NCBI GenBank assembly: GCA_036253055.1
Contig: GCA_036253055.1_4124.1
Source of the DNA: a phage
Length of the DNA: 64,000 nt
Reading direction: 5' to 3' (one strand)
The notes under the pieces were generated by a model that worked only from the letters and a program-made list of their open reading frames with translations, ran no database searches and had not been told where the DNA came from. A program made the translations under genes and the position numbers. Below, piece by piece: positions 10,406 through 26,089 of the stretch (position 1 is its first letter; every line of letters starts with the position of its first letter).

Positions 10406-10476
10406 GATCAAGATTTGATCAGAATTATACGCCTTATGCTAAATTGATCCAGTACTTTTTTGATCATTTATTGATC
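10406..10476. promoter_or_regulatory. cluster of five TTGATC (GATC) sites in 71 bp
   Basis: GATC at 10406, 10417, 10446, 10462, 10473, each preceded by TT. Confidence 0.45.
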
Positions 10477-10571
10477 GATATTATATAGTTACATTTGTGC
10501 ACCCTATGGGTTAGTGACGTTCTCGTCTTGATGTAAGTATTATGCCAGTACTGGCATAATTTGTCAATAGA

Positions 10572-10769
10572 TTATTTTAACTTTTTTCTGTCATTGATTA
10601 ATGCTTTCAGTACTATACTAATGATCTGCAATGATTCATCAATGACTATAAAATTATTTTCTTTCATTAGATGATAGTTACCATTGATTGTATATTCTAA
10701 GGAGTACTGTTTACGTTTAATTTTTGATAATGTTTCTATTTGTTTTTGTACTGATTTCATGCTAATCAT
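10572..10769 (-). CDS. hypothetical protein
   Basis: 65 aa ORF. Confidence 0.45.
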   Translation of the reverse strand: MISMKSVQKQIETLSKIKRKQYSLEYTINGNYHLMKENNFIVIDESLQIISIVLKALINDRKKLK

Positions 10770-10874
10770 TGTTAAACGTCCTGTAACGCATTCTAACGAG
10801 TTAAACGGTTTAGTACTGGCATTGTATAGGGTAAAGGATTAAAGCCCACCAGCGTTAACCAGTGGGCTATAATC

Positions 10875-11018
10875 TTACATCTTGCGGATAATCTTAACAG
10901 TATCTTTCACCGATTTACCGTCTTGCTGACATTGTTCGATCATCGCGTATTGTTCTGCGGTCAGATCCTCGCCAGTTTTTGCCAGTACTGCGTCGATGAA
11001 TGAATCCAGTGCGATCAT
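10875..11018 (-). CDS. small hypothetical protein (47 aa)
   Basis: Not in track; hand-translated MIALDSFIDAVLAKTGEDL... Confidence 0.4.
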   Translation of the reverse strand: MIALDSFIDAVLAKTGEDLTAEQYAMIEQCQQDGKSVKDTVKIIRKM

Positions 11019-11117
11019 TTTGTTTCTCTCTTAGGTTAAGTTAACTACTGTTTATAAAACTTATTATACAGTACTATCAAACTATGTCAATATCTTTAAT
11101 AGTACTGGTAATATATT

Positions 11118-11297
11118 TTAGCGGTAGTCGTCGTATGCTTTATTCACCTGGCGAATGTAACTTTCAAAGGCTTCGTCTACCGTTTCATACTCCCGAACAT
11201 AATCACCATAGGAAACTACATACATCCCTTTTTGATCTTCAAACGTCATGATGATAGAATCCAGGCCGATGATTTCAGTTTTTGCGATAATAGCCAT
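11118..11297 (-). CDS. small hypothetical protein (59 aa)
   Basis: Not in track (59 aa); SD AAGGAA; hand-translated MAIIAKTEIIG... Confidence 0.45.
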   Translation of the reverse strand: MAIIAKTEIIGLDSIIMTFEDQKGMYVVSYGDYVREYETVDEAFESYIRQVNKAYDDYR

Positions 11298-11380
11298 TTT
11301 AGTATTCCTTAGTAGTGTAGTTGATAAAAGTTATTATGCCAGTACTATCAATCATTGTCAATAGTACTGTGATAATATTT

Positions 11381-11593
11381 TTAGTTAATGATAGTCAGTG
11401 TAAAATTGTAATCCCCTGCCTGGTATAGTACTTTGTCGCCGAATGTACCAACACGTTTCATATTGCAATAGATACCCATAACACTTTTTACATCTTTGAT
11501 ATTCCGAACGCCTGTGATATCCTTGTTGAAATTTTCATGTTCAGAAAATAAAACTTGTTTTGCATTTTTCAGTACAGTGCAGATATTAGCCAT
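11381..11593 (-). CDS. hypothetical protein
   Basis: 70 aa. Confidence 0.5.
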   Translation of the reverse strand: MANICTVLKNAKQVLFSEHENFNKDITGVRNIKDVKSVMGIYCNMKRVGTFGDKVLYQAGDYNFTLTIIN

Positions 11594-11686
11594 TTTGATT
11601 TCTCTCTGTTTGTGGGGAGAACTATTCTCCCCTTGATGTAACTTATTATACAGTACTATAATCTATTGTCAAACTATTTTTTAATA

Positions 11687-12028
11687 TTATTCAAAATCTT
11701 CTGGACCGGACTGATAATCATCTTCACCGTATGCACTTTCTAACTTCTCGCCAGTGTGATCATCAGTTAGTGAGTCATCCTCATAGTTCACGTCTACGCC
11801 TACAATGTAAAACTGGCTATCGTCTGGATCATTGAAATTAATTTTCTGAATGTTTACAATAACGGTATTGATGCCCAGGACACCGCCATCAGCAGTTACA
11901 AAGTACTGATATTTTTCACAACCGCCTGAATTGAAACCGTAATTAATTTCGGCCCGACCATCATTTAAACGCAGTGCCTGGGCGATGATTTCATTTTCAA
12001 AGTTAGATTGAGCAATTGAGATAGTCAT
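11687..12028 (-). CDS. highly acidic hypothetical protein (candidate DNA mimic)
   Basis: 113 aa; D/E-rich C-terminus DDSLTDDHTGEKLESAYGEDDYQSGPEDFE; SD AAGGAAAC. Confidence 0.5.
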   Translation of the reverse strand: MTISIAQSNFENEIIAQALRLNDGRAEINYGFNSGGCEKYQYFVTADGGVLGINTVIVNIQKINFNDPDDSQFYIVGVDVNYEDDSLTDDHTGEKLESAYGEDDYQSGPEDFE

Positions 12029-12238
12029 GATTTGTTTCCTTATTACCAGGGGAAACCGTTTCCCCTTTCGATGTAAAACATTATACGCTTATTGAGATAG
12101 TTTGCAAGTACTTTTTAAAAATAGTTTTCAGTACTCAAACATTATATAATAGATACACTTATGCACCCTGTGGGCTAGTGAGCTATCTCTCAATGAATAT
12201 ATAATAGCAAAATGGCTGACCGGAGTCAACCACTTTTT

Positions 12239-12382
12239 TCATTTATTTTTAGCTTTTAGAATCGCCGCCTTTCGCGTCATGCCTTGCTTGATGTATTCCT
12301 GTACTTTCGCTTTACGTGCATTCGCTTTATTTGCTTTCGTAAACGCCGAACAACTTTTATAATTTAAGCCTGTTGGATTCAT
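12239..12382 (-). CDS. small basic protein (47 aa)
   Basis: Not in track; K/A-rich; hand-translated. Confidence 0.35.
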   Translation of the reverse strand: MNPTGLNYKSCSAFTKANKANARKAKVQEYIKQGMTRKAAILKAKNK

Positions 12383-12472
12383 TTAAATCACCATAAAGAA
12401 TAGATAGGTTACTAACAATGCCGCGATCAATGCACCGACCAGGGCCGAACTATAGTAAGCTAATGATTTCAT
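12383..12472 (-). CDS. hydrophobic micro-protein (29 aa, single TM)
   Basis: Hand-translated MKSLAYYSSALVGALIAALLVTYLFFMVI; ATGA overlap with upstream gene. Confidence 0.3.
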   Translation of the reverse strand: MKSLAYYSSALVGALIAALLVTYLFFMVI

Positions 12473-12621
12473 TTTTTAGCCTGAAAGTAATGTTTAATTT
12501 GTGCGGCGGTCAGTGCACAATTACGCAGGAAGTTTTCTGTATAACTGCGGCGAGTACTGAAAGAGAATTGACCTTTGCCGTTACCGATAGTAACATCAAA
12601 CCGAGCGTTGTATTGTTTCAT
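12469..12621 (-). CDS. small hypothetical protein
   Basis: Start moved to ATG 12619-12621; track N-terminus is translated UTR hairpin. Confidence 0.45.
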   Translation of the reverse strand: MKQYNARFDVTIGNGKGQFSFSTRRSYTENFLRNCALTAAQIKHYFQAKK

Positions 12622-12707
12622 TTTGATTCTCCTGTTATTGGGGAGAACCATTTCTCCCCTCTATGTAAAACATTATACGCGTTTAAAAACTAATTGCAAG
12701 TATTATT

Positions 12708-12959
12708 TTAAACTTTGTATTTTAAACTTTGTGCGACTAATTTCGCACGGTCAATCATATTCTGCCATTTTTGGATCTCTTCTGGTAGAAAACGATATTC
12801 ACCAATTACAATAGTGATACACTGGTCAGCCTTGTCGATGTATGTGGTATCAATCTCTACTTGAACGGGTACACGTTCGCCGTACTCAGTCCCTGGGATA
12901 ATGCAATCATTATCATAAGTTACAGTAGTAGCAGTGTCTTTGATTAAAATTGTTTCCAT
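12708..12959 (-). CDS. hypothetical protein
   Basis: 83 aa; SD GAGGAAAG. Confidence 0.55.
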   Translation of the reverse strand: METILIKDTATTVTYDNDCIIPGTEYGERVPVQVEIDTTYIDKADQCITIVIGEYRFLPEEIQKWQNMIDRAKLVAQSLKYKV

Positions 12960-13041
12960 TATACTTTCCTCGTTAGGTGTAAGGGGAACGTTTTCCCCTT
13001 CATGTAAACTATTATACAGTACTAAAAACTAATTGCAAGTA

Positions 13042-13188
13042 CTATTTTTTAGATTTACGCAAACTTTCTACCATCTCAGGAGTAAGGCCAGGCGGGTAGG
13101 AAACCACTTCATCAACGAAACGTAAAGGGAATACCCCAGCGAAAGGTGAACGTGCTTTCTTAGTATTACTCTTTTTTGATGCTTTCAT
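13042..13188 (-). CDS. small basic protein (48 aa), paralog of 7497..7631
   Basis: Not in track; hand-translated MKASKKSNTKKARSPFAGV...; shares MKA..N.KKA..P.AG N-terminus with 7497..7631. Confidence 0.45.
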   Translation of the reverse strand: MKASKKSNTKKARSPFAGVFPLRFVDEVVSYPPGLTPEMVESLRKSKK

Positions 13189-13257
13189 TTCATATTCCTT
13201 AATTAGTGGGGAGAATCATTTCTCCCCTTCATGTAAAACATTATACGCGTTTAAAAA

Positions 13258-13467
13258 CTAATTGCAAGTACTATTTGAAAGTAAATGCTCATACGCTGCA
13301 TTAACTACGTTTTCAATAACCGACTGTACAGAAAGATCCCCCACGTCCTGGCTATAGTAGAAATCGCTTACAGTGGTGTCATCGTATGCAAATACTTTAC
13401 CAGGTACTGCATCAATCACATACATATTAACCTTTAAGATGTCGATCTTATCCTGTACAGTAAGCAT
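13258..13467 (-). CDS. hypothetical protein
   Basis: 69 aa; 5-nt gap from upstream gene. Confidence 0.5.
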   Translation of the reverse strand: MLTVQDKIDILKVNMYVIDAVPGKVFAYDDTTVSDFYYSQDVGDLSVQSVIENVVNAAYEHLLSNSTCN

Positions 13468-13472
13468 ATTAA

Positions 13473-13745
13473 TTAACCTTTTAAGTACTGGCTTAAGTAG
13501 TCTTGTTGATCTTCGGTGATTGCAGCCATCTTCCCTAGTACTGGATTGATGATATAATCCCCTGTAACGTCCTGTAACGCATTCTCAGGCGGTTTAACGG
13601 CTGGGGTAGCCATAGCCATTGCCTGGACTTGTTCGACGCTGTAACGCTCATAAAGGCGGCATTCTTCCGGTGTTAACATAGCATCAGTACGCTTCATCGG
13701 TTTAATGATGCTTTCGATCTCATTCAGTACTTGATTAACGTTCAT
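13473..13745 (-). CDS. hypothetical protein
   Basis: 90 aa; SD GGGGA. Confidence 0.5.
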   Translation of the reverse strand: MNVNQVLNEIESIIKPMKRTDAMLTPEECRLYERYSVEQVQAMAMATPAVKPPENALQDVTGDYIINPVLGKMAAITEDQQDYLSQYLKG

Positions 13746-13796
13746 GGTATAATCCCCAATATAAGCGGCCTAAATCGACCGCTAACGATGTTTTGA

Positions 13797-14066
13797 TTAA
13801 TAGGTGTATGGTTGACGCTCAAACAATGAATAGACGTTATACGCCCCGCTTATGGGCTTCGCTGGTAAATCAATTTTATATTGTTCACGCTTAAAGATAA
13901 TAAAACGGCAATTGTTTTTAACATCAAAATTGATTGAACGTTCCAGGAGTTTACCATCGTGCACAAATACAAGATAACCGCTTGGTACTTGTTTTGTAGA
14001 ACTGGTTGCAACCATAGACCGACGAACATGTGTACCTGCATCGATTAAAGTACTGATATTTTTCAT
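13797..14066 (-). CDS. hypothetical protein
   Basis: 89 aa; SD AGAGGA. Confidence 0.5.
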   Translation of the reverse strand: MKNISTLIDAGTHVRRSMVATSSTKQVPSGYLVFVHDGKLLERSINFDVKNNCRFIIFKREQYKIDLPAKPISGAYNVYSLFERQPYTY

Positions 14067-14146
14067 TTTACTATCCTCTTAAGTTGATTTAATTTCTTTC
14101 TCCTATGCAGACACTATATCAAAGTATCTGCATAAAGTAAAGCTAA

Positions 14147-14470
14147 TTAAAGATCTTTTTTGCGTTTAACATTCTGTACAGTACAATGCAACGGGATATT
14201 AAGATCATTGCACAAACGATAGAGGGAGGTTTCAACAGTATCAAGCCCGTCTACTGATTCCTTTAAGAGTGATACCGCCGTTTGTTGATATGCATCCTCA
14301 TAGCCATAAGTAAATGATTCAACCGCCAGATCATTCAAGCCGTTATCCAGTTCAACGCTTACATGACAAGAATGATAAGTATTGCCATATGAATCAGTCC
14401 AACGTTTACCGTCAACATTGATTGCATGGATTGCAGCCAGGGAAACGGTGTTGATGATAGTTTTAGCCAT
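14147..14470 (-). CDS. hypothetical protein, paralog of 7086..7409
   Basis: WTDSYGNTYHSC..FTYGY motif; SD AAGGAA. Confidence 0.55.
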   Translation of the reverse strand: MAKTIINTVSLAAIHAINVDGKRWTDSYGNTYHSCHVSVELDNGLNDLAVESFTYGYEDAYQQTAVSLLKESVDGLDTVETSLYRLCNDLNIPLHCTVQNVKRKKDL

Positions 14471-14561
14471 TTTAGTATTCCTTAAATTAATATGTGTCGT
14501 CTTGATAAAATCTATTATGCCAGTACTATCAAACTATGTCAATAGTACTGTGATAATATTT

Positions 14562-14774
14562 TTACTTACTTTCTTTCGCTGCTTTATATGTTGCCACTGC
14601 CATAACCACATCAGCACGAACAAAGTTTTTAACCGTGTCACTGTAATAATTGATCGCATCATCTATATCTGCGAACGTCCGATACATACCGCACCAAGAT
14701 ACTTTATAACCTTCTTTCACTTCTACCAGTTTAACGATAGTCTTGTTAACTTTGATTTTAGTAATGATAGCCAT
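14562..14774 (-). CDS. hypothetical protein
   Basis: Start moved to ATG 14772-14774; track N-terminus is translated UTR hairpin. Confidence 0.5.
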   Translation of the reverse strand: MAIITKIKVNKTIVKLVEVKEGYKVSWCGMYRTFADIDDAINYYSDTVKNFVRADVVMAVATYKAAKESK

Positions 14775-14861
14775 TTTAGTTTCCTCATTATCAGGGAGAA
14801 CCATTTCTCCCCTTGATGTAATGTATTATACTTTATTCGATTTACTTTGCAAGTACTTTTT

Positions 14862-15089
14862 TTAATTTAATTCATCCAGGCAAAGGATACGCTCAACGCC
14901 CAAATCAGTTAAACTAATCGACGGCACTTGATAGGTTTCAATGTATGCTACACTTGCCCACTGACCGAACTCATTAACGGCCCAGGTATTCATTGCATTT
15001 TGCAATTCCGCACCTGCCTTGTTAGTAATGACTGCAACTACTTGTTCGTTGCCAGTAGTACCAGATACGCGAGTAATGATAATAGCCAT
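14862..15089 (-). CDS. hypothetical protein
   Basis: Track N-terminus MFYIERGK is translated promoter; start moved to ATG 15087-15089. Confidence 0.5.
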   Translation of the reverse strand: MAIIITRVSGTTGNEQVVAVITNKAGAELQNAMNTWAVNEFGQWASVAYIETYQVPSISLTDLGVERILCLDELN

Positions 15090-15319
15090 TGTTTTGATTC
15101 CTTTGATTTGGAAGGAGAACCGTTTCCCCCTCTCGATGTAAAACATTATACGCTAATCTCTTAATCGTGCAAGTACTTTTTATTACTTTTTGCAAAATAC
15201 TTTAAACGCTCTCAATCGCATTCTAACGACCTTAACGCCACCAGCTAGGGCGATGTATCAGATAATCAGTTTAATGCGTTAGAATCGATTCTAGGCGGTG
15301 CTGGTGGACTGGAATACTA

Positions 15320-15350
15320 CAGACACAAAAAAGCCCACTGTTTAAGGTGG
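15320..15350 (-). terminator. rho-independent terminator after gene 15375..15857
   Basis: Minus strand AGCCCACC-loop-GGTGGGCT followed by TTTTTTGTGT. Confidence 0.6.
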
Positions 15351-15374
15351 GCTAGTGATTCAGTACTTTAATTG

Positions 15375-15857
15375 TTATGCTTCAACTTTGCGATGAGCTT
15401 CGATCCATTCCTCGCGAGTCATACCGCTTTCTTTGATAGCGTCCAGTACTACCGCAATGCAGTTACCGCGTACAGGAATCAAATGTTCTTCCCCGTTATC
15501 AAGGACAACAGTAACACGTTCTTGAATCCATTTTTTAGGCTTAGATTCCGGCTTATCTTCACCGTACTTAACCGCCAGGGCTTTATGTGCCATTTCAATA
15601 ACCACTTCCAGATCTAAACCAGACACCGCCGCCTGAATACTTTCTATTGTTGCTTGCAGTTCTGCTTCACGGGCTTTTTTCTGTTCTTCCAGTTCTGCTA
15701 CCTTTTTGGCTTGTAGTTCTTTCGCTTCACTGTAAGCAATGTTAAAATTGTTGCGTACTGCTTTCATGGTATCATTATCCAGGTCAGCCAGCAATTCAGC
15801 AGCAATCACAGTATCGTTAGAAATCAGTGCTTTCAGAAATGATTTTACATTAGCCAT
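15375..15857 (-). CDS. possible H-NS-like nucleoid-associated protein
   Basis: N-terminal coiled coil (ELQAKKVAELEEQKKAREAELQ); C-terminus IPVRGNCIAVVLDAIKESGMTREEWI loosely resembles the H-NS DNA-binding region; start at ATG 15855-15857 (SD GAGGA). Confidence 0.35.
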   Translation of the reverse strand: MANVKSFLKALISNDTVIAAELLADLDNDTMKAVRNNFNIAYSEAKELQAKKVAELEEQKKAREAELQATIESIQAAVSGLDLEVVIEMAHKALAVKYGEDKPESKPKKWIQERVTVVLDNGEEHLIPVRGNCIAVVLDAIKESGMTREEWIEAHRKVEA

Positions 15858-16049
15858 TTTATAAATCCTCAATTAAAGTTTAAGTTAGTTTATCAAAGTT
15901 TGTTTGACGTGTCCAGTTTTTCATTCGACTTACTGGCGGTCTACTTAATGTTCCCCGTCTTGATGTAATACATTCTACGCTTTTCCCTGGTAATGTCAAC
16001 TACTTTTTTAAAACTATTTTCAAAGTATACCAGTACTACGATACTACAA

Positions 16050-16085
16050 AAACAAAAAAGCCCACTGTATAAGTGGGCTAGTGAT
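16050..16085 (-). terminator. rho-independent terminator after gene 16097..16396
   Basis: Minus strand AGCCCAC-loop-GTGGGCT followed by TTTTTTGTTTTTG. Confidence 0.6.
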
Positions 16086-16096
16086 TCAGTACTATA

Positions 16097-16396
16097 TTAT
16101 AAACAATTAATTACGCCAGTGAATGTAACTTTCTCTGTATCCATTACAGTAACCGAACCGCGTTTACTTTTTGCATCGTAATAGATGGTCGTGCTACCCT
16201 GATCATCTTCTTCATGGTACGGGCCATTAGCAAACATTGCAGGGGCCAGTTCCAGGGATTTGGTAACGATCTCAGCCGTTTCCTCGTTAGTCATTGCAAC
16301 AGTGCACTGAATGAATTTTTCTTTCTGTACATCAACGGAAGCGTTAACAGCGAAAGAGGAAACAGATAAAGCCAGGGCGATGATTGCAGTTTTCAT
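16097..16396 (-). CDS. secreted protein (signal peptide)
   Basis: N-terminus MKTAIIALALSVSSFAVNA; SD AAGGA; terminator downstream at 16050-16085. Confidence 0.55.
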   Translation of the reverse strand: MKTAIIALALSVSSFAVNASVDVQKEKFIQCTVAMTNEETAEIVTKSLELAPAMFANGPYHEEDDQGSTTIYYDAKSKRGSVTVMDTEKVTFTGVINCL

Positions 16397-16506
16397 TTGT
16401 ATATCCTTTGTTAGTACTAGGGAGTATTCCCGATTAGATGTAAAACATTATACGCGTTTAAAAACTATTATCAAGTACTTTAATATAAAAGTATTTGAAA
16501 AAAAGT

Positions 16507-16535
16507 CTTGACAACTGCATCCAGTACTGGCATAA
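16507..16535 (+). promoter_or_regulatory. plus-strand sigma70-like promoter (TTGACA, 17 nt, CATAAT) driving a short non-coding transcript
   Basis: TTGACA 16507-16512, CATAAT 16530-16535; followed by CCCACAGGGTGC motif and hairpin 16610-16640; no ORF. Confidence 0.45.
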
Positions 16536-16641
16536 TATCTACATAAAGACGAGATAGTCACTAACCCACAGGGTGCATAGATCCGTCTATTAAATGATTC
16601 AGTACTGCAAAATAAAGGGGATCGTTTGATCCCCCTGATTA

Positions 16642-16863
16642 TTACTTAGTAAGATATAAACAAAAATCACCTTTCTTTGATACTCCGCAAGTGTAACGCG
16701 ATGAATAGTTAGAAACGTCTTGTACTTCTGCAATGACGAGCGTATCATCATTTAACTCATCGCAAAAACATACTGCGGGATCTTCTACGCCGATATTGTC
16801 GGCATGTTCCCGCATAGATTTAACCAGTGCTTCAAGCTGGGAAAGAGTAGTGATATTAGCCAT
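16642..16863 (-). CDS. hypothetical protein
   Basis: 73 aa; SD TAAGGAG. Confidence 0.55.
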   Translation of the reverse strand: MANITTLSQLEALVKSMREHADNIGVEDPAVCFCDELNDDTLVIAEVQDVSNYSSRYTCGVSKKGDFCLYLTK

Positions 16864-16947
16864 TGTAAAACTCCTTATTAGTGGGGAGAACCATTTCCCC
16901 CTTGATGTAAACTATTATATAGTACTGGAAACTATTTGCAAGTACTT

Positions 16948-17136
16948 TTAATTAAATTCCATAAAATCATTTTCAACGTGCACAACAATCTGATTATTTT
17001 TAAAGGACGCAGAAAACTCTATACAATCATAAACCGCTTTTTCTGTTACCAGACTATGAGCACCAATCGGATTAATTGGGGATTGAATTGTTTCAATCTC
17101 GTTACCCTGCTCATTTACAATTAAAATATTAAACAT
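16948..17136 (-). CDS. hypothetical protein
   Basis: 62 aa; SD AGGAG. Confidence 0.5.
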   Translation of the reverse strand: MFNILIVNEQGNEIETIQSPINPIGAHSLVTEKAVYDCIEFSASFKNNQIVVHVENDFMEFN

Positions 17137-17210
17137 TGTCGTTACTCCTGGATAGTGTTAACTCGATGTAAACAATTATACAGTACTGGAAACTAATTGC
17201 AAGTACTTTT

Positions 17211-17414
17211 TTAATTTAATTGCTTTAAAACAAAATCAAAGACACCACGCACATCATTGATCATCGCCTGGCGGTTAGCAGGTAACGCATCAGGATCGCC
17301 ACTATCCCAGGCATTAATGAAGCCACTTAAATCATGGAATACTTTATTCCGTAACCCGATCAACTGCAATTCTTTTTCTTCAAGCTCTTTGATACGTTCA
17401 ATTAAATCACTCAT
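17211..17414 (-). CDS. hypothetical protein
   Basis: Start moved to ATG 17412-17414 (SD GAGGA). Confidence 0.45.
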   Translation of the reverse strand: MSDLIERIKELEEKELQLIGLRNKVFHDLSGFINAWDSGDPDALPANRQAMINDVRGVFDFVLKQLN

Positions 17415-17431
17415 TAGATAATCCTCAGTAC

Positions 17432-17716
17432 TCAATTGTAAGATCCACATCGTTCGCAGTAGTGTTCATCTTCCTCATCTTCTACCACTTGCCCGATGAA
17501 ATGATCTACTTTCGCTTTCAGGTTATTATAATCGTTTTCTACTTCCTGTAAACGTTCCTGGTAGTATTCCAGGGCTTCAACAAATGCAGCTTCCTCTGAT
17601 TTTGCTTGCATCGATAAATTCATCCCGCGTGTTTCATCATATAGCCAAAAACCATCGGTGCATTCAGTTATAGATAACGTGTTAGTCAGTACTTTACTAT
17701 TAATTACTTTGCTCAT
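17432..17716 (-). CDS. hypothetical protein
   Basis: 94 aa; C-terminal CERCGSY; SD GAGGA. Confidence 0.5.
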   Translation of the reverse strand: MSKVINSKVLTNTLSITECTDGFWLYDETRGMNLSMQAKSEEAAFVEALEYYQERLQEVENDYNNLKAKVDHFIGQVVEDEEDEHYCERCGSYN

Positions 17717-17801
17717 TAGATAATCCTCATTAAAGGCGGGAACTATTCCCGCTCTCGATATAAAGTATTATACGTTAATCTAATTACTTTGCAAGTACTT
17801 T

Positions 17802-18038
17802 TTAGTGCTTTTTATAAAACATCTCAGCGGTGATATTTTTACCCGTTGGTTGTACTTTATCCAGGATCTTTTGGTGTGCACTACGCCCGAAAGAATAAGA
17901 ACCGTAAACCGTTAGCCAGTAGTCGCCATTTTGGTTTACATGTACCGCACAATAAGGAACGCCCCGCGAATCGTCACCAATGAAGTGTGATACTGTACCC
18001 GTTACGTTTGGCGTTGTAGTTTTGATTTGTTCGATCAT
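17802..18038 (-). CDS. hypothetical protein
   Basis: Start moved to ATG 18036-18038 (SD AGGAG); track start lies in the UTR hairpin. Confidence 0.5.
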   Translation of the reverse strand: MIEQIKTTTPNVTGTVSHFIGDDSRGVPYCAVHVNQNGDYWLTVYGSYSFGRSAHQKILDKVQPTGKNITAEMFYKKH

Positions 18039-18096
18039 TTCTCTTACTCCTGGGATATAGGCGGGAACCATTCCCCGCCATTGATTCAGTACTGAA

Positions 18097-18708
18097 TTAA
18101 TATTCGATAGATTCTACTACATCGTCGATAACGTTAAATTGATATTCGTTACCCTCAATCAGTCCTACAATGTTTTCAGTAGTAAACTGGTCTTCATAAG
18201 CATTTTCTAAATCACGGTACAGCTTACAAGATAATTCTCGGATAGTATCAGTCAGTAAGTTTTCCAGATCCTCAGCCAATGCAGCCTGTTTTACAGTTAA
18301 ATCAGTGTAGCGAGTATCAACGCAACCGCCTACCGTGTTTTCGTGAGCGTAGCGTGATTGGGAACGTTCTACACTCATTTCCAAATCATCTTCGTTCAAC
18401 AGGTGACGGATGGAACGATATTTCGTTAACGCCTTAACCTTGCGTAAAAACTTCTCAGCGTCAACGTGGTCAGTACTGATTGATGCACCGTCACCTTGCG
18501 ACCAAAAACCACTGTATTGCAATTCAGCTTCATCTATGCCGTATTCTGGCAGTACTGTTTCTTTATAGTATTCCAGTACTGATTCAGCAAAGAAATTATC
18601 CTCACTTGCACGTTCCCGATCCCGAACCAGTTCGATAGCCGCCGCTTGTTGTTCTGCGTTCAGTTCAGAAAAATCCATAACGAAAGTAGTAGTAGTGATA
18701 GTTTTCAT
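18097..18708 (-). CDS. acidic hypothetical protein
   Basis: 203 aa; acidic; SD GAGGG. Confidence 0.5.
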   Translation of the reverse strand: MKTITTTTFVMDFSELNAEQQAAAIELVRDRERASEDNFFAESVLEYYKETVLPEYGIDEAELQYSGFWSQGDGASISTDHVDAEKFLRKVKALTKYRSIRHLLNEDDLEMSVERSQSRYAHENTVGGCVDTRYTDLTVKQAALAEDLENLLTDTIRELSCKLYRDLENAYEDQFTTENIVGLIEGNEYQFNVIDDVVESIEY

Positions 18709-19007
18709 TTTGTAACCCTCATTCAGTAGTTGATGTAAGTATTATACGCTTTTAAAAACAATTGTCAAACTATTTTATCAGGGGAGTTTTTCGTGTGCCT
18801 TACTCCTGGGCTACTTAACGGGAAGTTACTTATTTCGTTCCCCGTCCTGATGTAAAACATTATACGCCTTTAAACATAGTTTGCAAGTACTTTTTGAAAA
18901 TAGTTTTTATCTCTTTCATATAGATACATTCCCGCACCCTATGGGCTATCGCCTTGTGTCCGGCTTGTAAGTATTATCTCACTAAGCCGGATAACGGTCA
19001 AGTACTT

Positions 19008-19274
19008 TTATTCAAGTACTGCAATCTTTTTAGTACTGTACACAGTAACGCGGTTGCCCTTGCGGTCGTGCTTTATTTCTACCACGCGACGCGATACACT
19101 ATCAGGACGCTTTAAAGCAGATAGCCAGTACTGAATTGATCGGGCTGTACTTTGCTTTACTACGGCCCAACGTTTACCACGTTCAGATTGTACGCCCATA
19201 TCTTTAAACGTTGCCCCGTCCTGGCGTGCTGCAATCCGAGCTAGTTCACGCGTCGCAAAATATGTAATAGTCAT
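19008..19274 (-). CDS. hypothetical protein, paralog of 6591..6986
   Basis: Start moved to ATG 19272-19274 (SD AGGGG); shared FATRELARIAAR and HDRKGNRVTVYS motifs. Confidence 0.5.
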   Translation of the reverse strand: MTITYFATRELARIAARQDGATFKDMGVQSERGKRWAVVKQSTARSIQYWLSALKRPDSVSRRVVEIKHDRKGNRVTVYSTKKIAVLE

Positions 19275-19357
19275 GCTGTTACCCCTATCGTTGATGTACA
19301 AAAAGAACTTTATTATAAAGTACTATCACCGTGCAATAGTACTTTTAATCTATTCTC

Positions 19358-19597
19358 TTACATTCCAACCATCGCCGCACGGATCGCAGTAGTACTATAC
19401 TTAAAGCCGTCCGGTGTTTTATCTTGTCCAGTCTGTTCTAAAAATAGCATCATATGACGGGCCGCATCATTACGATTAGTGTTAGCGGCAATAAAGTCCT
19501 GGGCCAACCGGTATAATGATTCGTCGTTATTAATCCAAAGGCTTACATTCCATTGAGTTTTGTTTTTGTGTCCTAAGAACATTTTTGATTTAGCCAT
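19358..19597 (-). CDS. hypothetical protein
   Basis: Start moved to ATG 19595-19597; track N-terminus is translated promoter. Confidence 0.45.
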   Translation of the reverse strand: MAKSKMFLGHKNKTQWNVSLWINNDESLYRLAQDFIAANTNRNDAARHMMLFLEQTGQDKTPDGFKYSTTAIRAAMVGM

Positions 19598-19691
19598 TTT
19601 TAAATCCTCTTTATTATAGTGGGGAACTATTCCCCACCTGATGTAAAACATTATACGCTTTTAAACTTAGTTTGCAAGTACTTTATTAAAC

Positions 19692-20054
19692 TTATTCGTA
19701 AATCTTGCCACTGTCAGCCCATACCAGGAAACGAGGCATATTATCCCATGCATCTTGTTTTAAGTTTAAGCCGTGTAATACTTCTGTACTTTCCATTCCT
19801 GGTACTGGCTTGCTATACACTGCAAACATTTCGCCCATGTACTGATAAGCCATCGTTAAATCAGTCTGGATCATCTTATGGATCATTGCATCCAGCATTG
19901 CAGTAGCGGCATACTGTTCACGCTTAAGCGGCAGCATTGCAATCAATTCCCGATAAGCTGCAATGTGAATCCGTACAGTCTCAGCGGGAAGATCTTTCAT
20001 CTCTTCACGGAAAGAAACCAGGTTAAGCATGATAGTATTGATTTGAGTCGCCAT
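19692..20054 (-). CDS. hypothetical protein
   Basis: Start moved to ATG 20052-20054; track N-terminus MFYIESGN is translated promoter. Confidence 0.5.
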   Translation of the reverse strand: MATQINTIMLNLVSFREEMKDLPAETVRIHIAAYRELIAMLPLKREQYAATAMLDAMIHKMIQTDLTMAYQYMGEMFAVYSKPVPGMESTEVLHGLNLKQDAWDNMPRFLVWADSGKIYE

Positions 20055-20417
20055 CGTTTTAATCTCTTTTAAAGTGTAGCGGGAAGTGTTCCCGCTCTCG
20101 ATGTAAAACATTCTACACCTTTCCCAATACTTTGCAAGTACTTTCTACAAATACTTTTAAAATAGTTTTCTTTCTATATAGGGGAACTATCTTTCAGTAC
20201 TGCAACCATCCAGGGGAACTATCTTTCTATATAGTAGTACTATGATTCAGTACTGAATCAATCCACCAAATCATCCCGATACCCCGTAAAACGGCCTCAG
20301 ACGCATTCTAACGCATTAATACACCTAAGCTATACATTTGCACCATTCCAATCATTCCAGGGCTTTACAGGCCGTTTAAACGCGTTAAATTATTTTCAAT
20401 TATTTTGTTTTTAGCTA

Positions 20418-20445
20418 TTGACTCAGTACTAAAAAAGCGTATAAT
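20418..20445 (+). promoter_or_regulatory. plus-strand sigma70 consensus promoter (TTGACT, 16 nt, TATAAT) in ORF-free region
   Basis: Perfect -10 TATAAT 20440-20445; no ORF downstream. Confidence 0.45.
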
Positions 20446-20880
20446 TACTACATAGACGCGAGAAAGCGGATACCCCAGGGGGTGGGAAGATCCGTCCAAA
20501 ATTCAAGATATAAAAAAAGGATACACTCCCGCACCCTAGCAGGTTAACGCACTTTCTCAGTACTGAATTATAGTACCATAGTCCGGCCCAGGATGGCAAG
20601 CAAATTAATTAAAACTTTTTTCATCCAGGGTATTGCTTTATTTTTCCAGTACTGTATAATAGTTCCATCAAGTCGAGAAAGACTCAAGCCCACCGGGTGC
20701 ATAGTTACGCCCAAAATTCAGTACTGAAAAAATTTTTAAAAATATCCGTCCAGGCCGTTGACATTGCCCCCAGTTTATAAGATAATGATTCCAGATTCAG
20801 AAAAATCTAACTCCAGATACTGCGGGGAAACTATCCCCACGCGGTAGGGGAACTATTGGAAAAAACAAAATAAAATTTTG

Positions 20881-21030
20881 ATTTAGCCGTCTATACTTCC
20901 AGACGTGTAACCATCTAGCCGTTTAGCCGTCCAAACGTCTAGCAATCCAGCCATCCAGAAATCTAGCCGTTTAGCCGTCTAGATGGATAGCCATCTTTAC
21001 TTCCAGACTTCTGGAGGGCTAGACATATCT
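20881..21030. repeat. iteron-like direct repeats (TAGCCGT units; 17-mer CTAGCCGTTTAGCCGTC twice)
   Basis: TAGCCGT at 20884, 20916, 20924, 20964, 20972; ACTTCCAGAC twice; in ORF-free region. Confidence 0.5.
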
Positions 21031-21701
21031 ACGTCCAAAATCCACCCAGGGTAACTACGCCCAAAATCCGTCAGTACTATACCATAGATCTATCTTTTGA
21101 AAGGGAGTATTCAGTACTGTCATCATAGCCCTCACTATGTTACCCTAGGAGGATGAAGACTATCATGTAGTACTGAATACTGTTAGAGGGAATCCACCAG
21201 CACAAGCTGGTGGCATAATGCTTTAGATTAAAATCAGTACTGACACCATTCTGTTAATATCAGTACTGTTATTACGATTTTCATATGAGGTTCAAAAAGA
21301 TGTACCACCACAGGAGGAACTATCTTTTCTGTACTGTCTCACGACAGGAGGTAGAGTAAATGAATTGTTCGCAGCAACTCATCACCCTATGTAGAACATT
21401 ATACAGTACTGAATCATAATGTCAATAGCTTTCTTTCATTATTCAGTACTGAAATCGTATAATCTGTATCGCTACAAAACTCATTATATCCCACAAATCC
21501 TATATGTCCCAACGTAAATTTCAACTTTCGAAGATCCAACTTTTATTTCATAGGTACTCCAAAATTTTTAGGATCGAGATTTAGGATGGAGTACTAACCA
21601 ACTTTTTGCTGGAGCCTCAAGGGGTAATTGAATTTTACCCCGAAGGGTAAAAGGGTAATTGAAATTAAGGTGAAAGTAATAATTCAGTACTAATCATTGC
21701 G

Positions 21702-21928
21702 TGATTACTTTTGATTACATTTGATGTAATTTGCAAAATGGAAAAGGAGCTTGGAAACTACAAAGTACGGCAGACTTCCTCTGCCTACTTAGTGGCATAT
21801 CAGTACTGCTACGTTCTTGATTAAACGTGAACATTCCTGTACTCTAGTACTCACTACTGATCACTACAGTGATTATAAATGATTACTTAAATGTTTATAT
21901 ATGATTACTTATGACTACCTATGATTAC
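21702..21928. repeat. cluster of TGATTAC direct repeats
   Basis: TGATTAC at about 21702, 21713, 21880, 21902, 21922, plus variant ATGACTAC. Confidence 0.4.
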
Positions 21929-21968
21929 GGGGTTTAGCCTGGGGAGAATCCTAGTGATCGCATTTGTC

Positions 21969-22008
21969 CAGGCTGAATTTTAACATATGCAACATATGTT
22001 AAAGCCTG
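21969..22008. repeat. large imperfect palindrome centred on TTAACATATG-CAA-CATATGTTAA
   Basis: Perfect 10-bp arms 21980-21989 and 21993-22002, flanked by CAGGCT/AGCCTG. Confidence 0.55.
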
Positions 22009-22044
22009 TATAATGCTTCCACTACGGAGCTTCCCCTAGCTATA

Positions 22045-22236
22045 TTACTTCCTATATATAATCATTAAGATATAGTAGTACTGATTATACTGTACATTCT
22101 CTTTAATATTATAAGGGTCTATAGCAATCTCGGTACATCTGTTAAATGCATATCTATTAAATGCCAGTGGAATTATAGATCTAATCCATACTTGTTCATT
22201 TTCTTTTAGTTTACTTATATAGAAGTTTTTATACAT
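22045..22236 (-). CDS. small protein, paralog family B (about 60 aa)
   Basis: 63 aa; C-terminal YYYILMIIYRK. Confidence 0.5.
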   Translation of the reverse strand: MYKNFYISKLKENEQVWIRSIIPLAFNRYAFNRCTEIAIDPYNIKENVQYNQYYYILMIIYRK

Positions 22237-22251
22237 AGTATTCTCTATTAA

Positions 22252-22434
22252 TTAATATGATAGTACTAGTGTTAGTACTGAGCACAATTGTTCTTTGTAG
22301 TTCTTAGGGTATATAGAATCTTTTATGCACTCATTGAAGTGCCATAGGTATAATCTTGGGTCGCATTCTTTATATATTCTTACGGGGACGAATGTTAGTT
22401 TTCTTATATAGAATTCTTTATGTTCTTTATTCAT
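22252..22434 (-). CDS. small protein, paralog family B
   Basis: MNKEHKEFYIRKL N-terminus. Confidence 0.5.
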   Translation of the reverse strand: MNKEHKEFYIRKLTFVPVRIYKECDPRLYLWHFNECIKDSIYPKNYKEQLCSVLTLVLSY

Positions 22435-22439
22435 ATTAG

Positions 22440-22625
22440 TTAGTGTCTGTATATAAGTAATAGTAAGAATACGTACTGCACATCTTCATCTTTAGTATTG
22501 AGTACTGTACGTATTGCGTCATTAAACAAGAATATAGTACTTGGGTCATGAGAATTTAAAGGGGTTCTGGGTACGGCATGTTTGTAGTTCCCTTTAACAA
22601 ATTGTGTGTAGTATTCTCTATGCAT
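22440..22625 (-). CDS. small protein, paralog family B
   Basis: MHREYYTQF...LLLLIYRH. Confidence 0.5.
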   Translation of the reverse strand: MHREYYTQFVKGNYKHAVPRTPLNSHDPSTIFLFNDAIRTVLNTKDEDVQYVFLLLLIYRH

Positions 22626-22626
22626 A

Positions 22627-22812
22627 TTAGTACCTATATATTAGGGCGAGAATGTAGTACAATTCATATGGAATGTAATTTGGGGTGATCGCACACTGTG
22701 TATGGTAAATGAATTGTTCGGTATTTTTCTTATCCTTGATATCTATTGGGATTAGTGGTATAAGCATTTGGGAGTTTAGATCCAGATGGCTTAAGTAGAA
22801 TTCTTTATGCAT
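22627..22812 (-). CDS. small protein, paralog family B
   Basis: MHKEFYLSHL...YYILALIYRY. Confidence 0.5.
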   Translation of the reverse strand: MHKEFYLSHLDLNSQMLIPLIPIDIKDKKNTEQFIYHTQCAITPNYIPYELYYILALIYRY

Positions 22813-22821
22813 ATTGTTCTC

Positions 22822-23010
22822 TTAGAATACGAAAGCTAGGTACAGGGTATGATACAGTACTCGATGGTAGCTGTCAAAATCTAGTATACATGCTTTAGTG
22901 CACATAGTAAAATACACTTTATCATTTTGTGCATTGATACCGCGAGGTTTATCTAATAGATTAGTTCTGAGGTACATTGGGAAATATTTTGTGTAGTATT
23001 CTTTATGCAT
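22822..23010 (-). CDS. small protein, paralog family B
   Basis: Start moved to internal MHKEYY (ATG 23008-23010) to match family length. Confidence 0.45.
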   Translation of the reverse strand: MHKEYYTKYFPMYLRTNLLDKPRGINAQNDKVYFTMCTKACILDFDSYHRVLYHTLYLAFVF

Positions 23011-23011
23011 G

Positions 23012-23194
23012 TTAGTACCTGAATATAAGTAGGATAGTGTTATATAGCTGGTCATAACTACTACTATTTTCTATACTTCGTTCTATGCAGTTATTGAATC
23101 CCAGTACTGCCAAATCGTTATCCAGAGGGACTTTATATCTGGCGTAGTGTTCAAAAATGCTGGGGAGAAATTGTGTGTAGTATTCTTTGTGCAT
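23012..23194 (-). CDS. small protein, paralog family B
   Basis: MHKEYYTQF...ILLIFRY. Confidence 0.5.
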   Translation of the reverse strand: MHKEYYTQFLPSIFEHYARYKVPLDNDLAVLGFNNCIERSIENSSSYDQLYNTILLIFRY

Positions 23195-23195
23195 A

Positions 23196-23381
23196 TTAGT
23201 ACCTATATATTAGTAAAAGGATGTGATACAGTACTCGATTATAGTCTTCAATATATATCGAGGATTTAGTGCACTGAATGAAGTAGTCTTTTTCGTAGTT
23301 TTTTTCTATACCCAATGGTTCTGTTGGTACAAGGTGTTGGAGATACATTGGGAGTTTCTCTATGTAGTATTCTTTATGCAT
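23196..23381 (-). CDS. small protein, paralog family B
   Basis: MHKEYYIEKLPMYLQ...LLLIYRY. Confidence 0.5.
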   Translation of the reverse strand: MHKEYYIEKLPMYLQHLVPTEPLGIEKNYEKDYFIQCTKSSIYIEDYNRVLYHILLLIYRY

Positions 23382-23382
23382 G

Positions 23383-23571
23383 TTAGTACTTAAATGTTAG
23401 GGCGAGGATGTAATACAGTTTATATGTTCTATCCTCATACATTAGGGTGTACTTAGTACATTCCTGGAACATTGTTTTTGCGTCATCTTTTATGCCCAAT
23501 GCAACGTTTGGTATATGGCTCTGTAGATACATTGGGAGTTTCTCTATGTAGTATTCTTTGTGGTTATTCAT
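23383..23571 (-). CDS. small protein, paralog family B
   Basis: MNNHKEYYIEKLPMYLQ...ILALTFKY. Confidence 0.5.
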   Translation of the reverse strand: MNNHKEYYIEKLPMYLQSHIPNVALGIKDDAKTMFQECTKYTLMYEDRTYKLYYILALTFKY

Positions 23572-23572
23572 A

Positions 23573-23755
23573 TTAGTACCTGAATGTTAGCATTACTACG
23601 TAGTACAGCATATATGGATTATCATCGTATATGAGCGTGTACTTAGTACATTGTTGGAACATTATCTTTGCGTGATCTTTTATTCCTATTGGTTCTGTTG
23701 GTATATGGTGCTGGAGATGCATAGGGATTTTATCCCTGTAGTATTCTTTGTGCAT
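23573..23755 (-). CDS. small protein, paralog family B
   Basis: MHKEYYRDKIPMHLQ...VVMLTFRY. Confidence 0.5.
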   Translation of the reverse strand: MHKEYYRDKIPMHLQHHIPTEPIGIKDHAKIMFQQCTKYTLIYDDNPYMLYYVVMLTFRY

Positions 23756-23765
23756 GTTGTTCTCT

Positions 23766-23948
23766 TTAGTACTTATATATTAGGAGTAAAATGTTATAGT
23801 ACTGGTTCATTGCGTCATCATTTTCTATAGCACGTTTTACGCTATTCATGTAGTTAGATCGAGCGGCACGAGTTATGAGAAGAACTTTGTATGCAGCAAA
23901 GTATTTTTGCTGCACGGGTAGTTTAGAGATATAGTATTCTTTATACAT
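23766..23948 (-). CDS. small protein, paralog family B
   Basis: Start moved to internal MYKEYY (ATG 23946-23948). Confidence 0.45.
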   Translation of the reverse strand: MYKEYYISKLPVQQKYFAAYKVLLITRAARSNYMNSVKRAIENDDAMNQYYNILLLIYKY

Positions 23949-24612
23949 AGTTTGTAATATACGTAATGAGGTGATGCATTTTCTTATTAGTACTGATAAT
24001 TTCCTGTACATGTTTTGTCAGATTGTACGCGTTTTTATAGAGTACTGGATTATCGATTACAGTACTGTACATGAATAGTTCTTCTTCCTGTAGTTCTTTG
24101 TGTTCTAGTTCTTTGAGGAAATCTACAATTGATTTAGTTTCTTCTGTACGTTGTGCTTGCCAGAAGTGCATATTCTCGTGTACTTTTTTTGAACCCATAT
24201 TGTATATGCCACCCATTTGGAATTGTGCTGTATTGACATCGTGGGAGGTGTTACAATTCCCGAAGAAGTATGTATTCCCGAAGTATAGCATTAAAGTGCA
24301 CGGGGTATTATCCAACTGCATATGGATGATGAAGGATGCGTTCTTTAGTACCTTTGTGCTCGTATTAGTACTCAATACTTTTAAATCAGTATTATAGATA
24401 TTCATATAATGAACAGCTATATTATTTTTTTTCATATACAAATCAAGGTTCTTTGATACGTTAACACCATTTGTACTGGATTTTTCCTTTTTATTTCGTT
24501 TCTTTAGTACATTCGGGTGATACGTATATGCAGATGTAACTGATTCTGCCTGAATACTATTGAGGTACTTAAAGTGCTTAAGGTATTGTTTGCTGTGTGC
24601 ATTAAGTTTCAT
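23941..24612 (-). CDS. hypothetical protein (223 aa) inside the family-B array
   Basis: ORF track; AT-rich; no motif recognised; overlaps next gene start by 8 nt. Confidence 0.45.
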   Translation of the reverse strand: MKLNAHSKQYLKHFKYLNSIQAESVTSAYTYHPNVLKKRNKKEKSSTNGVNVSKNLDLYMKKNNIAVHYMNIYNTDLKVLSTNTSTKVLKNASFIIHMQLDNTPCTLMLYFGNTYFFGNCNTSHDVNTAQFQMGGIYNMGSKKVHENMHFWQAQRTEETKSIVDFLKELEHKELQEEELFMYSTVIDNPVLYKNAYNLTKHVQEIISTNKKMHHLITYITNYV

Positions 24613-24622
24613 TTGGTTTCCT

Positions 24623-24802
24623 TTATATAGATGCCAGGGCGAGGATTTCCCTGTAGGGATTATCTTGTGTTAGTACAGCATAAATGCAGCTATTGAGATT
24701 AATATTTTTAGTACTTTTTGTTCCTAGGTTGTAGTAATCAACGAAGGTGTCGTACATGAAACGGTCTTTTATGGTTATACGTTCTATATAGAATTGTTGC
24801 AT
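24623..24802 (-). CDS. small protein, paralog family B (59 aa)
   Basis: Not in track (<60 aa); hand-translated MQQFYIERITIKD...YREILALASI; SD AAGGAA. Confidence 0.45.
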   Translation of the reverse strand: MQQFYIERITIKDRFMYDTFVDYYNLGTKSTKNINLNSCIYAVLTQDNPYREILALASI

Positions 24803-24810
24803 AGTATTCC

Positions 24811-24993
24811 TTAAATAGCGATTAGTTTCATTACTTCTCTGTATGTGTACTTTTCGTTTTGTGCATCTCTTGTGACGACATATAGGAAGGTGTGTTTATC
24901 TTTTTTGTTCCCGCAATTGTAGAAAATATTGAACTTATTGAAGTTGAATCTTTCGGCGTGTTGTAGTTTAGTTAAATAGAATTCTATGTTCAT
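24811..24993 (-). CDS. small protein, paralog family B (subfamily 2)
   Basis: MNIEFYLTKL...YTYREVMKLIAI. Confidence 0.5.
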   Translation of the reverse strand: MNIEFYLTKLQHAERFNFNKFNIFYNCGNKKDKHTFLYVVTRDAQNEKYTYREVMKLIAI

Positions 24994-25001
24994 TTTCTTC
25001 C

Positions 25002-25187
25002 TTACATTTCAATAAGTTTAAGTACTGCTCGGTACGTGTACTTAGTTGTTAGTGCTTCTTTAATAGAAATACAGAAGTAATGTTGTTTGTCTCTTATACT
25101 GCCGCGTTTGTAGTACCACACATGGGAGTTGTGACTGTACTTGTCTCTGTCGGATAGTTGTTGGTAGTAGTAGCTTATATGATTCAT
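25002..25187 (-). CDS. small protein, paralog family B (subfamily 2)
   Basis: ...YTYRAVLKLIEM. Confidence 0.5.
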   Translation of the reverse strand: MNHISYYYQQLSDRDKYSHNSHVWYYKRGSIRDKQHYFCISIKEALTTKYTYRAVLKLIEM

Positions 25188-25239
25188 TATAATGTAATTA
25201 GCCTTACTATATTAAAGTACTCGGTCCCTGGTGTACCTT

Positions 25240-25434
25240 TTAGAACTTAAAGATGAGGTTCAGGATAGAGCGGTACTTAGTTGCAGGGAACGTATGTTCT
25301 ATTGCATCACGTGTCTCCATCCTGAAATCGTAATTGTAATATAGATTATTCTTTCTCATAGGTCGTGCTAAAGAGAATGATAGCTGTTCTTGCTTGTGTA
25401 GTTTACTACAATAGAAATCTTTATGATTATTCAT
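25240..25434 (-). CDS. small protein, paralog family B (subfamily 2)
   Basis: MNNHKDFYCSKL... Confidence 0.45.
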   Translation of the reverse strand: MNNHKDFYCSKLHKQEQLSFSLARPMRKNNLYYNYDFRMETRDAIEHTFPATKYRSILNLIFKF

Positions 25435-25636
25435 AGAAATATATTAGTCCTATTAAACCTGAGTACTGAATATTTTTGTTATTGCATTCGATTGCTTCTA
25501 GAGTACTACGTATACAATTATTAAAGCAATCTCTGGCGTGTGGTGTATCTATACTTAAAGGTGATACACTCCTTAGAAACAATTGTTCTTCGTTGCTAAG
25601 GTATTTGGTGTAGAATTCTTTATGTTCAGTATTCAT
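25427..25636 (-). CDS. small protein, paralog family B
   Basis: MNTEHKEFYTKYL... Confidence 0.45.
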   Translation of the reverse strand: MNTEHKEFYTKYLSNEEQLFLRSVSPLSIDTPHARDCFNNCIRSTLEAIECNNKNIQYSGLIGLIYFYE

Positions 25637-25637
25637 A

Positions 25638-25847
25638 TTAGTACTCGATTAATAGTGTTAAGATGAAATAGTACTGCATAGACTCGTTACCTTCAAGGAA
25701 ATTCCTTATGAGGTTATTTCTGACTGAGTTAAGCAGAAGTGCCGAACGTTTTGCATTTGCAAGTATAATTTGTTGATGCTCTATGCTATTCTGTTCACCT
25801 TTTGACAGAGCACATAGGTAGTACTGCATAATTTGTTCTTGGGTCAT
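25638..25847 (-). CDS. small protein, paralog family B (divergent)
   Basis: 69 aa; ...YYFILTLLIEY. Confidence 0.4.
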   Translation of the reverse strand: MTQEQIMQYYLCALSKGEQNSIEHQQIILANAKRSALLLNSVRNNLIRNFLEGNESMQYYFILTLLIEY

Positions 25848-26089
25848 ATAGATGCCAGTACTAAAAGGTTAATGAATCGTTTACTTTCGTCAGGGTTTTG
25901 AAGTCCCTCAAAGATGTCCTCTATAAAGCAATTCAACATAAGTGCATTTGTTGGGGTAGTACTTTTTTTGAGGGTATTGATTGCACAGAATTTTGAGAGG
26001 AAGAATGCGAAGTCTTCTGCGTTCATGTAGCTCATATAGTTCTTAGTACTTTGGCTAAGTGCTTGGTAGTGATCTATTACATTGTTCAT
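25844..26089 (-). CDS. small hypothetical protein (first gene of array)
   Basis: 81 aa; 4-nt overlap with downstream gene. Confidence 0.4.
   Translation of the reverse strand: MNNVIDHYQALSQSTKNYMSYMNAEDFAFFLSKFCAINTLKKSTTPTNALMLNCFIEDIFEGLQNPDESKRFINLLVLASI

Follow-up and report, generated by a model that had tools for sequence, protein, structure and literature searches.

The locus at positions 22045..26089 of the window (the whole stretch of 64,000 nucleotides of phage DNA analyzed here) raises the question of how a single ORF of 223 codons (23941..24612, minus strand) came to lie among 17 genes of only 59–81 codons, which follow each other closely on the minus strand with junctions of −8 to +52 nt, and what its product may do. 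A sequence-only reading had correctly placed this ORF in the middle of an array of a 60-aa protein family and had offered two explanations, namely, an insertion that split the array and a functional partner of the small proteins.

Organization of the Small-Gene Array

The 223-aa ORF begins with ATG, ends with TAA, and is the orthologue of 121Q gp256, G17_00061, and phAPEC6 gp544c. A Shine–Dalgarno sequence, AAGGA (24619..24623, minus strand), can be read 6 nt ahead of its ATG and shares nucleotides with the stop codon of the small gene on the upstream side. At its 3′ end, the slight overlap with the next family member noted previously was found to be 8 nt long (ATGTATAA, 23941..23948, minus strand), with the start codon of the small gene at 23948..23946 and the stop codon of the 223-aa ORF at 23943..23941; the same 8-nt overlap is present in the G17 annotation. 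This stop/start arrangement suggests that translation of the next small gene (23766..23948) may be coupled to that of the 223-aa ORF. According to the G17 and 121Q annotations, the true start of the latter is the ATG at 23948 (MYKEYY...). An overlap of 71 nt, which follows from the longest mechanical ORF (81 aa, start 24011), was rejected because this ORF exceeds the annotated length of the gene in those two phages.

All small genes belong to the same operon as the 223-aa ORF: seven lie upstream (59–81 aa, 24623..26089, minus strand) and ten downstream (60–63 aa, 22045..23948, minus strand). An all-against-all phmmer comparison of the 17 small proteins grouped the ten downstream genes into one subfamily (A, phrog_11711) and the three genes directly upstream of the 223-aa ORF (24623, 24811, and 25002) into subfamily B. 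Further upstream, 25240 and 25427 grouped with the downstream subfamily A, and 25638 and 25844 were outliers, so that the layout can be written as A-like / B-B-B / 223 / A × 10. The earlier description of the ORF as a divider between two subfamilies is therefore accurate for its immediate surroundings (three B genes directly upstream and ten A genes downstream) but does not extend to the whole array, given the A-like genes and the two outliers on the upstream side.

The number of small genes varied by whole-gene units among close relatives (22045..26089 of the window compared with L001, L004, L006, and L007). Three genes at 23383..23948 were absent from phAPEC6 and the SD phages, and G17 had one extra small gene near 25190–25240. 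Such copy-number variation fits unequal recombination, which would have taken place between paralogues. A near-consensus promoter, TTGACA-17-TATCAT, was also seen at 22849..22877 (minus strand) inside the gene 22822..23010; the last four small genes might be transcribed from it on their own.

Coding Status and Distribution of the 223-aa Gene

At the base composition of the window, 0.006 ORFs as long as the 223-aa ORF are expected by chance. A tblastn search with this ORF retrieved 36 phage records, in 33 of which it was full-length (100% coverage, 39–97% identity). In about 30 relatives, the most distant with 41% identity, the ORF was intact and its position unchanged. The dN/dS ratio calculated by the Nei–Gojobori method was 0.23–0.47 (pairs with dS > 0.19). 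These data show that the 223-aa ORF truly encodes a protein and evolves under purifying selection. The gene is already known as an annotated hypothetical protein in 121Q (gp256), G17 (G17_00061), phAPEC6 (gp544c), A4 (A4_254), and JNE01, whereas its paralogy with the ORF at 39136..39798 (minus strand), considered below, is new. The profile of phrog_29152 was matched over the full length of the protein (E-value = 6.8e-151, positions 1–223 of 223). The members of phrog_29152 (121Q gp256, PBECO4, G17_00061, and phAPEC6 gp544c, all Asteriusvirus hypothetical proteins) represent the same gene, with 92–97% identity and the same operon position. A literature search found no paper on the 223-aa gene, the small-gene array, or the timing of Asteriusvirus transcription.

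Megablast of the region 21500–27000 returned 37 phage records, including G17, Sharanji, PBECO4, 121Q, and phAPEC6; all of them were Asteriusvirus jumbo phages that infect Escherichia or Salmonella (85–97% identity), and the window itself comes from an Asteriusvirus jumbo coliphage of the 121Q/PBECO4/G17 type. In a set of 5.8 billion proteins clustered at 90% identity, the 223-aa family comprised 22 clusters, and a profile search of 1.84 billion representatives recovered only seven at E ≤ 1e-3. A second profile search added EJP2-type homologues with 24–27% identity. The 22–29 family clusters in the 5.8-billion set all came from coliphage-like contigs, and the gene was thus shown to be confined to Asteriusvirus-type jumbo phages.

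The sequence-only reading would have been contradicted by close relatives in which the array is present and the ORF is absent or non-coding. In all good-quality relatives, the ORF was intact, and it was broken only in deletion-riddled or unverified records. The former are those of the Salmonella phages SD-1, SD-2, SD-6, and SD-15, in which the gene is disrupted by four different internal deletions (99, 176, 258, and 193 nt, respectively); relative to the window, SD-15 has at least 12 clean deletions of 42–1886 bp over 30 kb, in many genes. The four SD records are 22–38 kb shorter than 121Q, and their remaining sequence is 95–98% identical; the deletions may reflect genuine genome reduction or assembly artefacts. 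The CMSTMSU record is labeled "UNVERIFIED" and contains frameshifts. Because these records are deletion-riddled or unverified, they were not used as evidence of dispensability, and the SD deletions were rejected as a sign of counter-selection against the 223-aa gene, since the records are deletion-riddled throughout.

Synteny of the Locus and Origin of the Gene

The GC and GC3 contents of the 223-aa gene (0.336 and 0.375, respectively) were the same as those of the pooled small genes (0.339 and 0.381), and a foreign origin by base composition was rejected. The synteny check in related genomes that had been proposed earlier revealed that the same locus is occupied in JNE01, EJP2, and two metagenomic contigs, L013 and L014. 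In JNE01, whose protein is 41% identical, the gene holds the same place in the array, preceded by six small genes and followed by at least nine. The syntenic interval of EJP2 is bounded on one side by a conserved 139-aa gene (19692..20111 of the window) and on the other by the RCC1-like array, which starts there in the divergent direction; this interval contains only the family homologue EJP02_511, directly behind the promoter, and no small genes. Three tandem family paralogues of 213, 213, and 168 aa occupy this interval in L013 (E-values against the family HMM of 7e-65, 5e-15, and 4e-7), and L014 has two. It should be noted that the 157-aa product called in L014 at 253..903 (P0028) is N-terminally truncated, and its frame extends upstream to MKLNKHQQRYNKFF...; once extended, P0028 measures about 217 aa and represents the family at full length. 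An HMM of 117 members of the small family matched 16–17 ORFs in the JNE01 and A4 loci and none in the EJP2, L013, and L014 loci.

Consequently, the 223-aa family is the common occupant of the locus, whereas only the 121Q/PBECO4/JNE01 clade has the 60-aa genes. The family looks like the older resident because its homologues are found at the same locus, together with the promoter, in EJP2, L013, and L014, which have no 60-aa genes. The comparison of these loci strongly suggests that the 223-aa gene was the original resident around which the 60-aa genes gathered, or else that the relatives lost their 60-aa genes. On either history, we strongly infer that the gene would not have entered an existing array. 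The proposal of an insertion that split the array is thus contradicted by the GC content, by the position kept in JNE01, and by the homologues in the array-less loci.

A Distant Paralogue and the RCC1-Like Array

Upstream of the operon, on the plus strand, lies an array of RCC1-like beta-propeller paralogues (26191..39155) with matches to Pfam WD40_RLD and RCC1. It comprises about eleven paralogues with a common N-terminus (MLPFGRMI.YGNI), and two of its genes near 37991–39155 appear split or truncated. The ORF of 220 codons at 39136..39798 (minus strand; phrog_34359) is the last gene of a minus-strand operon converging on the last RCC1-like gene, with a 20-nt overlap of the 3′ ends. Comparison by hhalign of the alignment of its orthologues (A7) with the 223-aa family alignment (A5) identified it as a distant paralogue of the 223-aa ORF (probability 89%, E-value = 2.4e-6, 141 columns; residues 47–203 against 50–209). 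The phmmer links between the two groups run via P0039, EJP02_494, and EJP02_495, and L13_6304, a bridging sequence along with P0039, matches the profiles of both the phrog_29152 and phrog_34359 groups. The two proteins share a length of about 220 aa, a basic N-terminal tail, and the motifs SK.F..L..K..IK..Y and FQYS(T/L)I at the same positions. However, they are only about 18% identical, lie at opposite ends of the RCC1-like array in different minus-strand operons, and are listed in PHROGs as separate families. Together, phrog_29152 and phrog_34359 were shown to form a fast-diverging, lineage-specific paralogue family.

In EJP2, EJP02_494, 495, and 496 stand in tandem at the end of the array where the window has the 220-aa paralogue, and EJP02_511 stands at the other; EJP2 and the metagenomic relatives have two to four family copies at the borders of the RCC1-like array. 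Family genes were found at these borders in the window, EJP2, L013, and SD-15, and family members bracket the RCC1-like array in each lineage examined. The 220-aa paralogue is directly preceded by seven tandem genes (39841..42621, minus strand) whose products, very hydrophobic paralogues of 104–141 aa, are apparently multi-pass membrane proteins; the equivalent array in EJP2 is EJP02_486-493.

Mass spectrometry of phAPEC6 virions detected the RCC1-like proteins gp003-010, gp549, and gp551 (PMC7247149, Table 1), and the orthologues of the RCC1-like array products of the window are thus virion proteins in that phage. The orthologue of the 223-aa protein, gp544c, is absent from this list of 62 virion proteins, which represents one phage and one experiment, and the small proteins were likewise undetected in phAPEC6 virions (PMC7247149).

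Predicted Structure and Family Searches

The AlphaFold model of the 223-aa protein, obtained after four distant homologues (24–27% identity) had been added to the alignment, had a pLDDT of 78 and a pTM of 0.70; the five models spanned pLDDT values from 53 to 78, and a shallower alignment of 20 close orthologues only gave an unusable model (pLDDT 39). Residues 50–223 were mostly above 80, and residues 15–48 were below 50. The N-terminal part is modeled as a helix (5–18), a basic linker, and a second helix (54–62), which are followed by strands 66–72, 92–100, 103–110, 113–118, 131–134, 142–145, and 148–151 and by the C-terminal helices 157–171, 176–183, 189–206, and 212–222. In every full-length paralogue, the net charge of residues 1–50 is +8 to +14, and 4–12 of these residues are aromatic. 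The best-conserved motifs in the divergent family are MKL....(K)(H/Q)Y...F(K), IPC, and (T/S)EEE(L/M)FQ(Y)S(T/L)(I/V)I.NP.LY.

Foldseek comparison of the model with the PDB gave nothing below an E-value of 0.8, and a search of BFVD returned one unnamed viral protein. The Pfam, PADLOC, and PDB sequence-profile searches yielded no match, in keeping with the earlier remark that no motif could be recognized; the PADLOC anti-phage defence models found no families for four family members. The label "prefoldin subunit 5", which one source gives to P0021, was rejected, since no prefoldin family was among the Pfam matches of 20 members. The nearest known systems considered for the protein include RWD/UBC-like alpha+beta sandwich domains (for example, RNF25 RWD, 2day; RWDD3, 4y1l; KNL1, 4nf9; Kre28, 9s5n; CENP-O, 7pb8). 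Pfam RWD and UQ_con gave no match even at E-values up to 10. As for the marks of catalytic E2 proteins, the HPN motif is missing, and the distant homologues lack C120. The globular domain may be novel or RWD-like.

Promoter, Terminal Repeat, and Expected Timing

Upstream of the first gene of the operon, 24 nt ahead of its start region, lies a sigma-70 promoter of perfect consensus, TTGACA-17-TATAAT (26113..26141, minus strand). The pattern TTGACA-N17-TAnnAT was found at the same place in G17, JNE01, A4, SD-15, and UB and directly upstream of a family gene in EJP2 and L013. Altogether, the window contains 42 sigma-70 sites with no more than one mismatch to the 12-base consensus, 17 of them perfect, compared with 4.4 ± 2.9 in shuffled sequences; the perfect sites have the form TTGACA-16/17-TATAAT. 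The sites are nearly all on the minus strand, mostly at 2.9–21.4 kb and 43–64 kb, and none lies inside the RCC1-like array (26.2–39.1 kb).

The boundary of a putative direct terminal repeat was placed at 21769..21789, where a GC-rich hairpin, GGCAGAGGAAGTCTGCC, adjoins it, by mapping the end of the G17 record to the window. The right end of that record is identical (100%) to G17 18885–20668 and maps to window position 21789, and the repeat end mapped in this way agrees with the length of the direct terminal repeat of phage Sharanji (20,668 bp; PMC11895373). If the termini match those of G17, the sequence 1..21789 of the window would be terminal-repeat sequence. From this boundary to the end of the operon, the unique region measures 256 bp; given the G17 end at 21789 and the Sharanji repeat, the operon would be the transcription unit with which the unique region opens beside the left terminal repeat.

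A stretch of about 1.9 kb (20112..22044), which separates the array from the 139-aa gene, is without a convincing ORF, and an equivalent ORF-free gap is present in EJP2, L013, and L014. Searches of 20112..22044 for RNA genes revealed no tRNA and no Rfam match; the gap holds a perfect promoter (21425..21398, minus strand) and terminator-like hairpins.

Early genes read by the host RNA polymerase are expected to follow a conserved sigma-70 promoter of consensus type, and the operon has one. Judged by this promoter sequence, the 223-aa gene is probably early and read by the host polymerase; the literature search found no Asteriusvirus transcriptome. The data also suggest that the product is non-structural. 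Small early gene clusters behind consensus host promoters are known in large lytic phages from the early regions of T4 and the pre-early regions of T5. The resemblance lies in many short, fast-evolving, lineage-specific genes, near-perfect sigma-70 promoters, and a location beside or within the terminal repeat. However, there is no sequence relationship between the T4/T5 regions and this operon.

Alternative Explanations and Proposed Role

A foreign insertion into a pre-existing 60-aa array would account for the A-type small genes found on both sides of the block of three B genes and the 223-aa gene. Nevertheless, this origin is very improbable: besides the matching GC and GC3 contents and the family members in lineages without the array, there are no flanking repeats, integrase, or other mobile-element signs, and a paralogue exists elsewhere in the same genome. 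It might also be supposed that the 223-aa ORF is an enlarged relative of the 60-aa proteins, either with a homologous C-terminal helical region of about 60 residues or as the source from which the small genes were derived. A weak collinear resemblance (L..EE.LF..S...P / NK...L..I..Y) is consistent with this, the small-family HMM repeatedly placed its positions 12–61 on residues 172–219 (domain scores of 2–5.5 bits), and, in relatives, tandem full-length paralogues fill the space taken here by small genes. However, no test was significant: hmmsearch with the HMM of the 17 small proteins against the 223-aa protein gave an E-value of 0.39, the 117-member HMM scored 5.5 bits or less, and hhalign of the small family against the 223-aa family gave P values of 0.33–0.44 for three profile pairs. 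The 223-aa ORF is thus not detectably related to the 60-aa family by these comparisons, and such kinship is quite doubtful.

Partnership with the 60-aa proteins, with the 223-aa protein retained in the operon as a scaffold, regulator, chaperone, or part of a complex, is in turn favored by the single promoter and the predicted co-transcription, by the close junctions (10 nt and −8 nt) with the stop/start overlap, and by the embedded arrangement kept from 121Q-type phages to JNE01 at 41% identity. It is at odds with EJP2, L013, and L014, which keep the family at the locus without 60-aa genes, and with the small genes flanking it, which vary in number and identity among close relatives while the 223-aa gene is constant. 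Because the family occurs without the small genes, an obligate partnership is impossible; of the earlier proposal, a facultative one survives, which we consider unlikely. The bracketing of the virion-protein array offers another pointer, as the role of the protein could be tied to the RCC1-like proteins, whose assembly it would assist as a chaperone or whose array it would regulate. Family members bracket the array in the window, EJP2, and L013, and the RCC1-like proteins are virion-associated, but the 223-aa gene is on the opposite strand behind a host-type promoter, such promoters are lacking in the RCC1 array, the protein was undetected in phAPEC6 virions, and it has no similarity to known fibre or propeller chaperones. 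A role of this kind is therefore improbable.

The reading that we favor, and to which we assign an about even chance, is that the 223-aa protein is an early accessory protein, transcribed by the host polymerase and acting by binding rather than by catalysis, whose gene is a long-standing resident of the locus. The gene would be co-transcribed with the small genes from the conserved sigma-70 promoter. The basic, aromatic N-terminal tail of about 50 residues might bind a polyanionic target, for example, nucleic acid. A protein partner might be bound by the globular module, which spans about 170 residues and has an antiparallel sheet packed on a four-helix C-terminal bundle. Binding would possibly be stoichiometric; no catalytic motif was found in the protein, and it matched no enzyme or defence family. 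Its role may tentatively be placed in accessory host takeover or counter-defence early in infection. A far more speculative extension, to which we attach very little probability, is a new fold class of early jumbo-phage effector: the protein would be an RWD/E2-like non-catalytic decoy or adaptor directed against a host ubiquitin-like/E2-dependent defence or another conjugation or signalling module, with the basic tail as a tether to nucleic acid and the 60-aa genes as shed, amplified copies of the C-terminal helical domain.

These phages have genomes of 350 kb, in which about 83% of the genes are without known function (PMC7247149). For one such gene, an anonymous ORF has become a defined object: its product is conserved, probably early, and non-virion, its domains are modeled with confidence, and it has no structural relatives. 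Together with the 220-aa paralogue and the subfamilies of small genes, the 223-aa gene now forms a defined set for experiments. The paralogue family marks both borders of the RCC1-like virion-protein array, and the locus gives a picture of small-gene arrays that would have grown around older resident genes near the terminal repeat.
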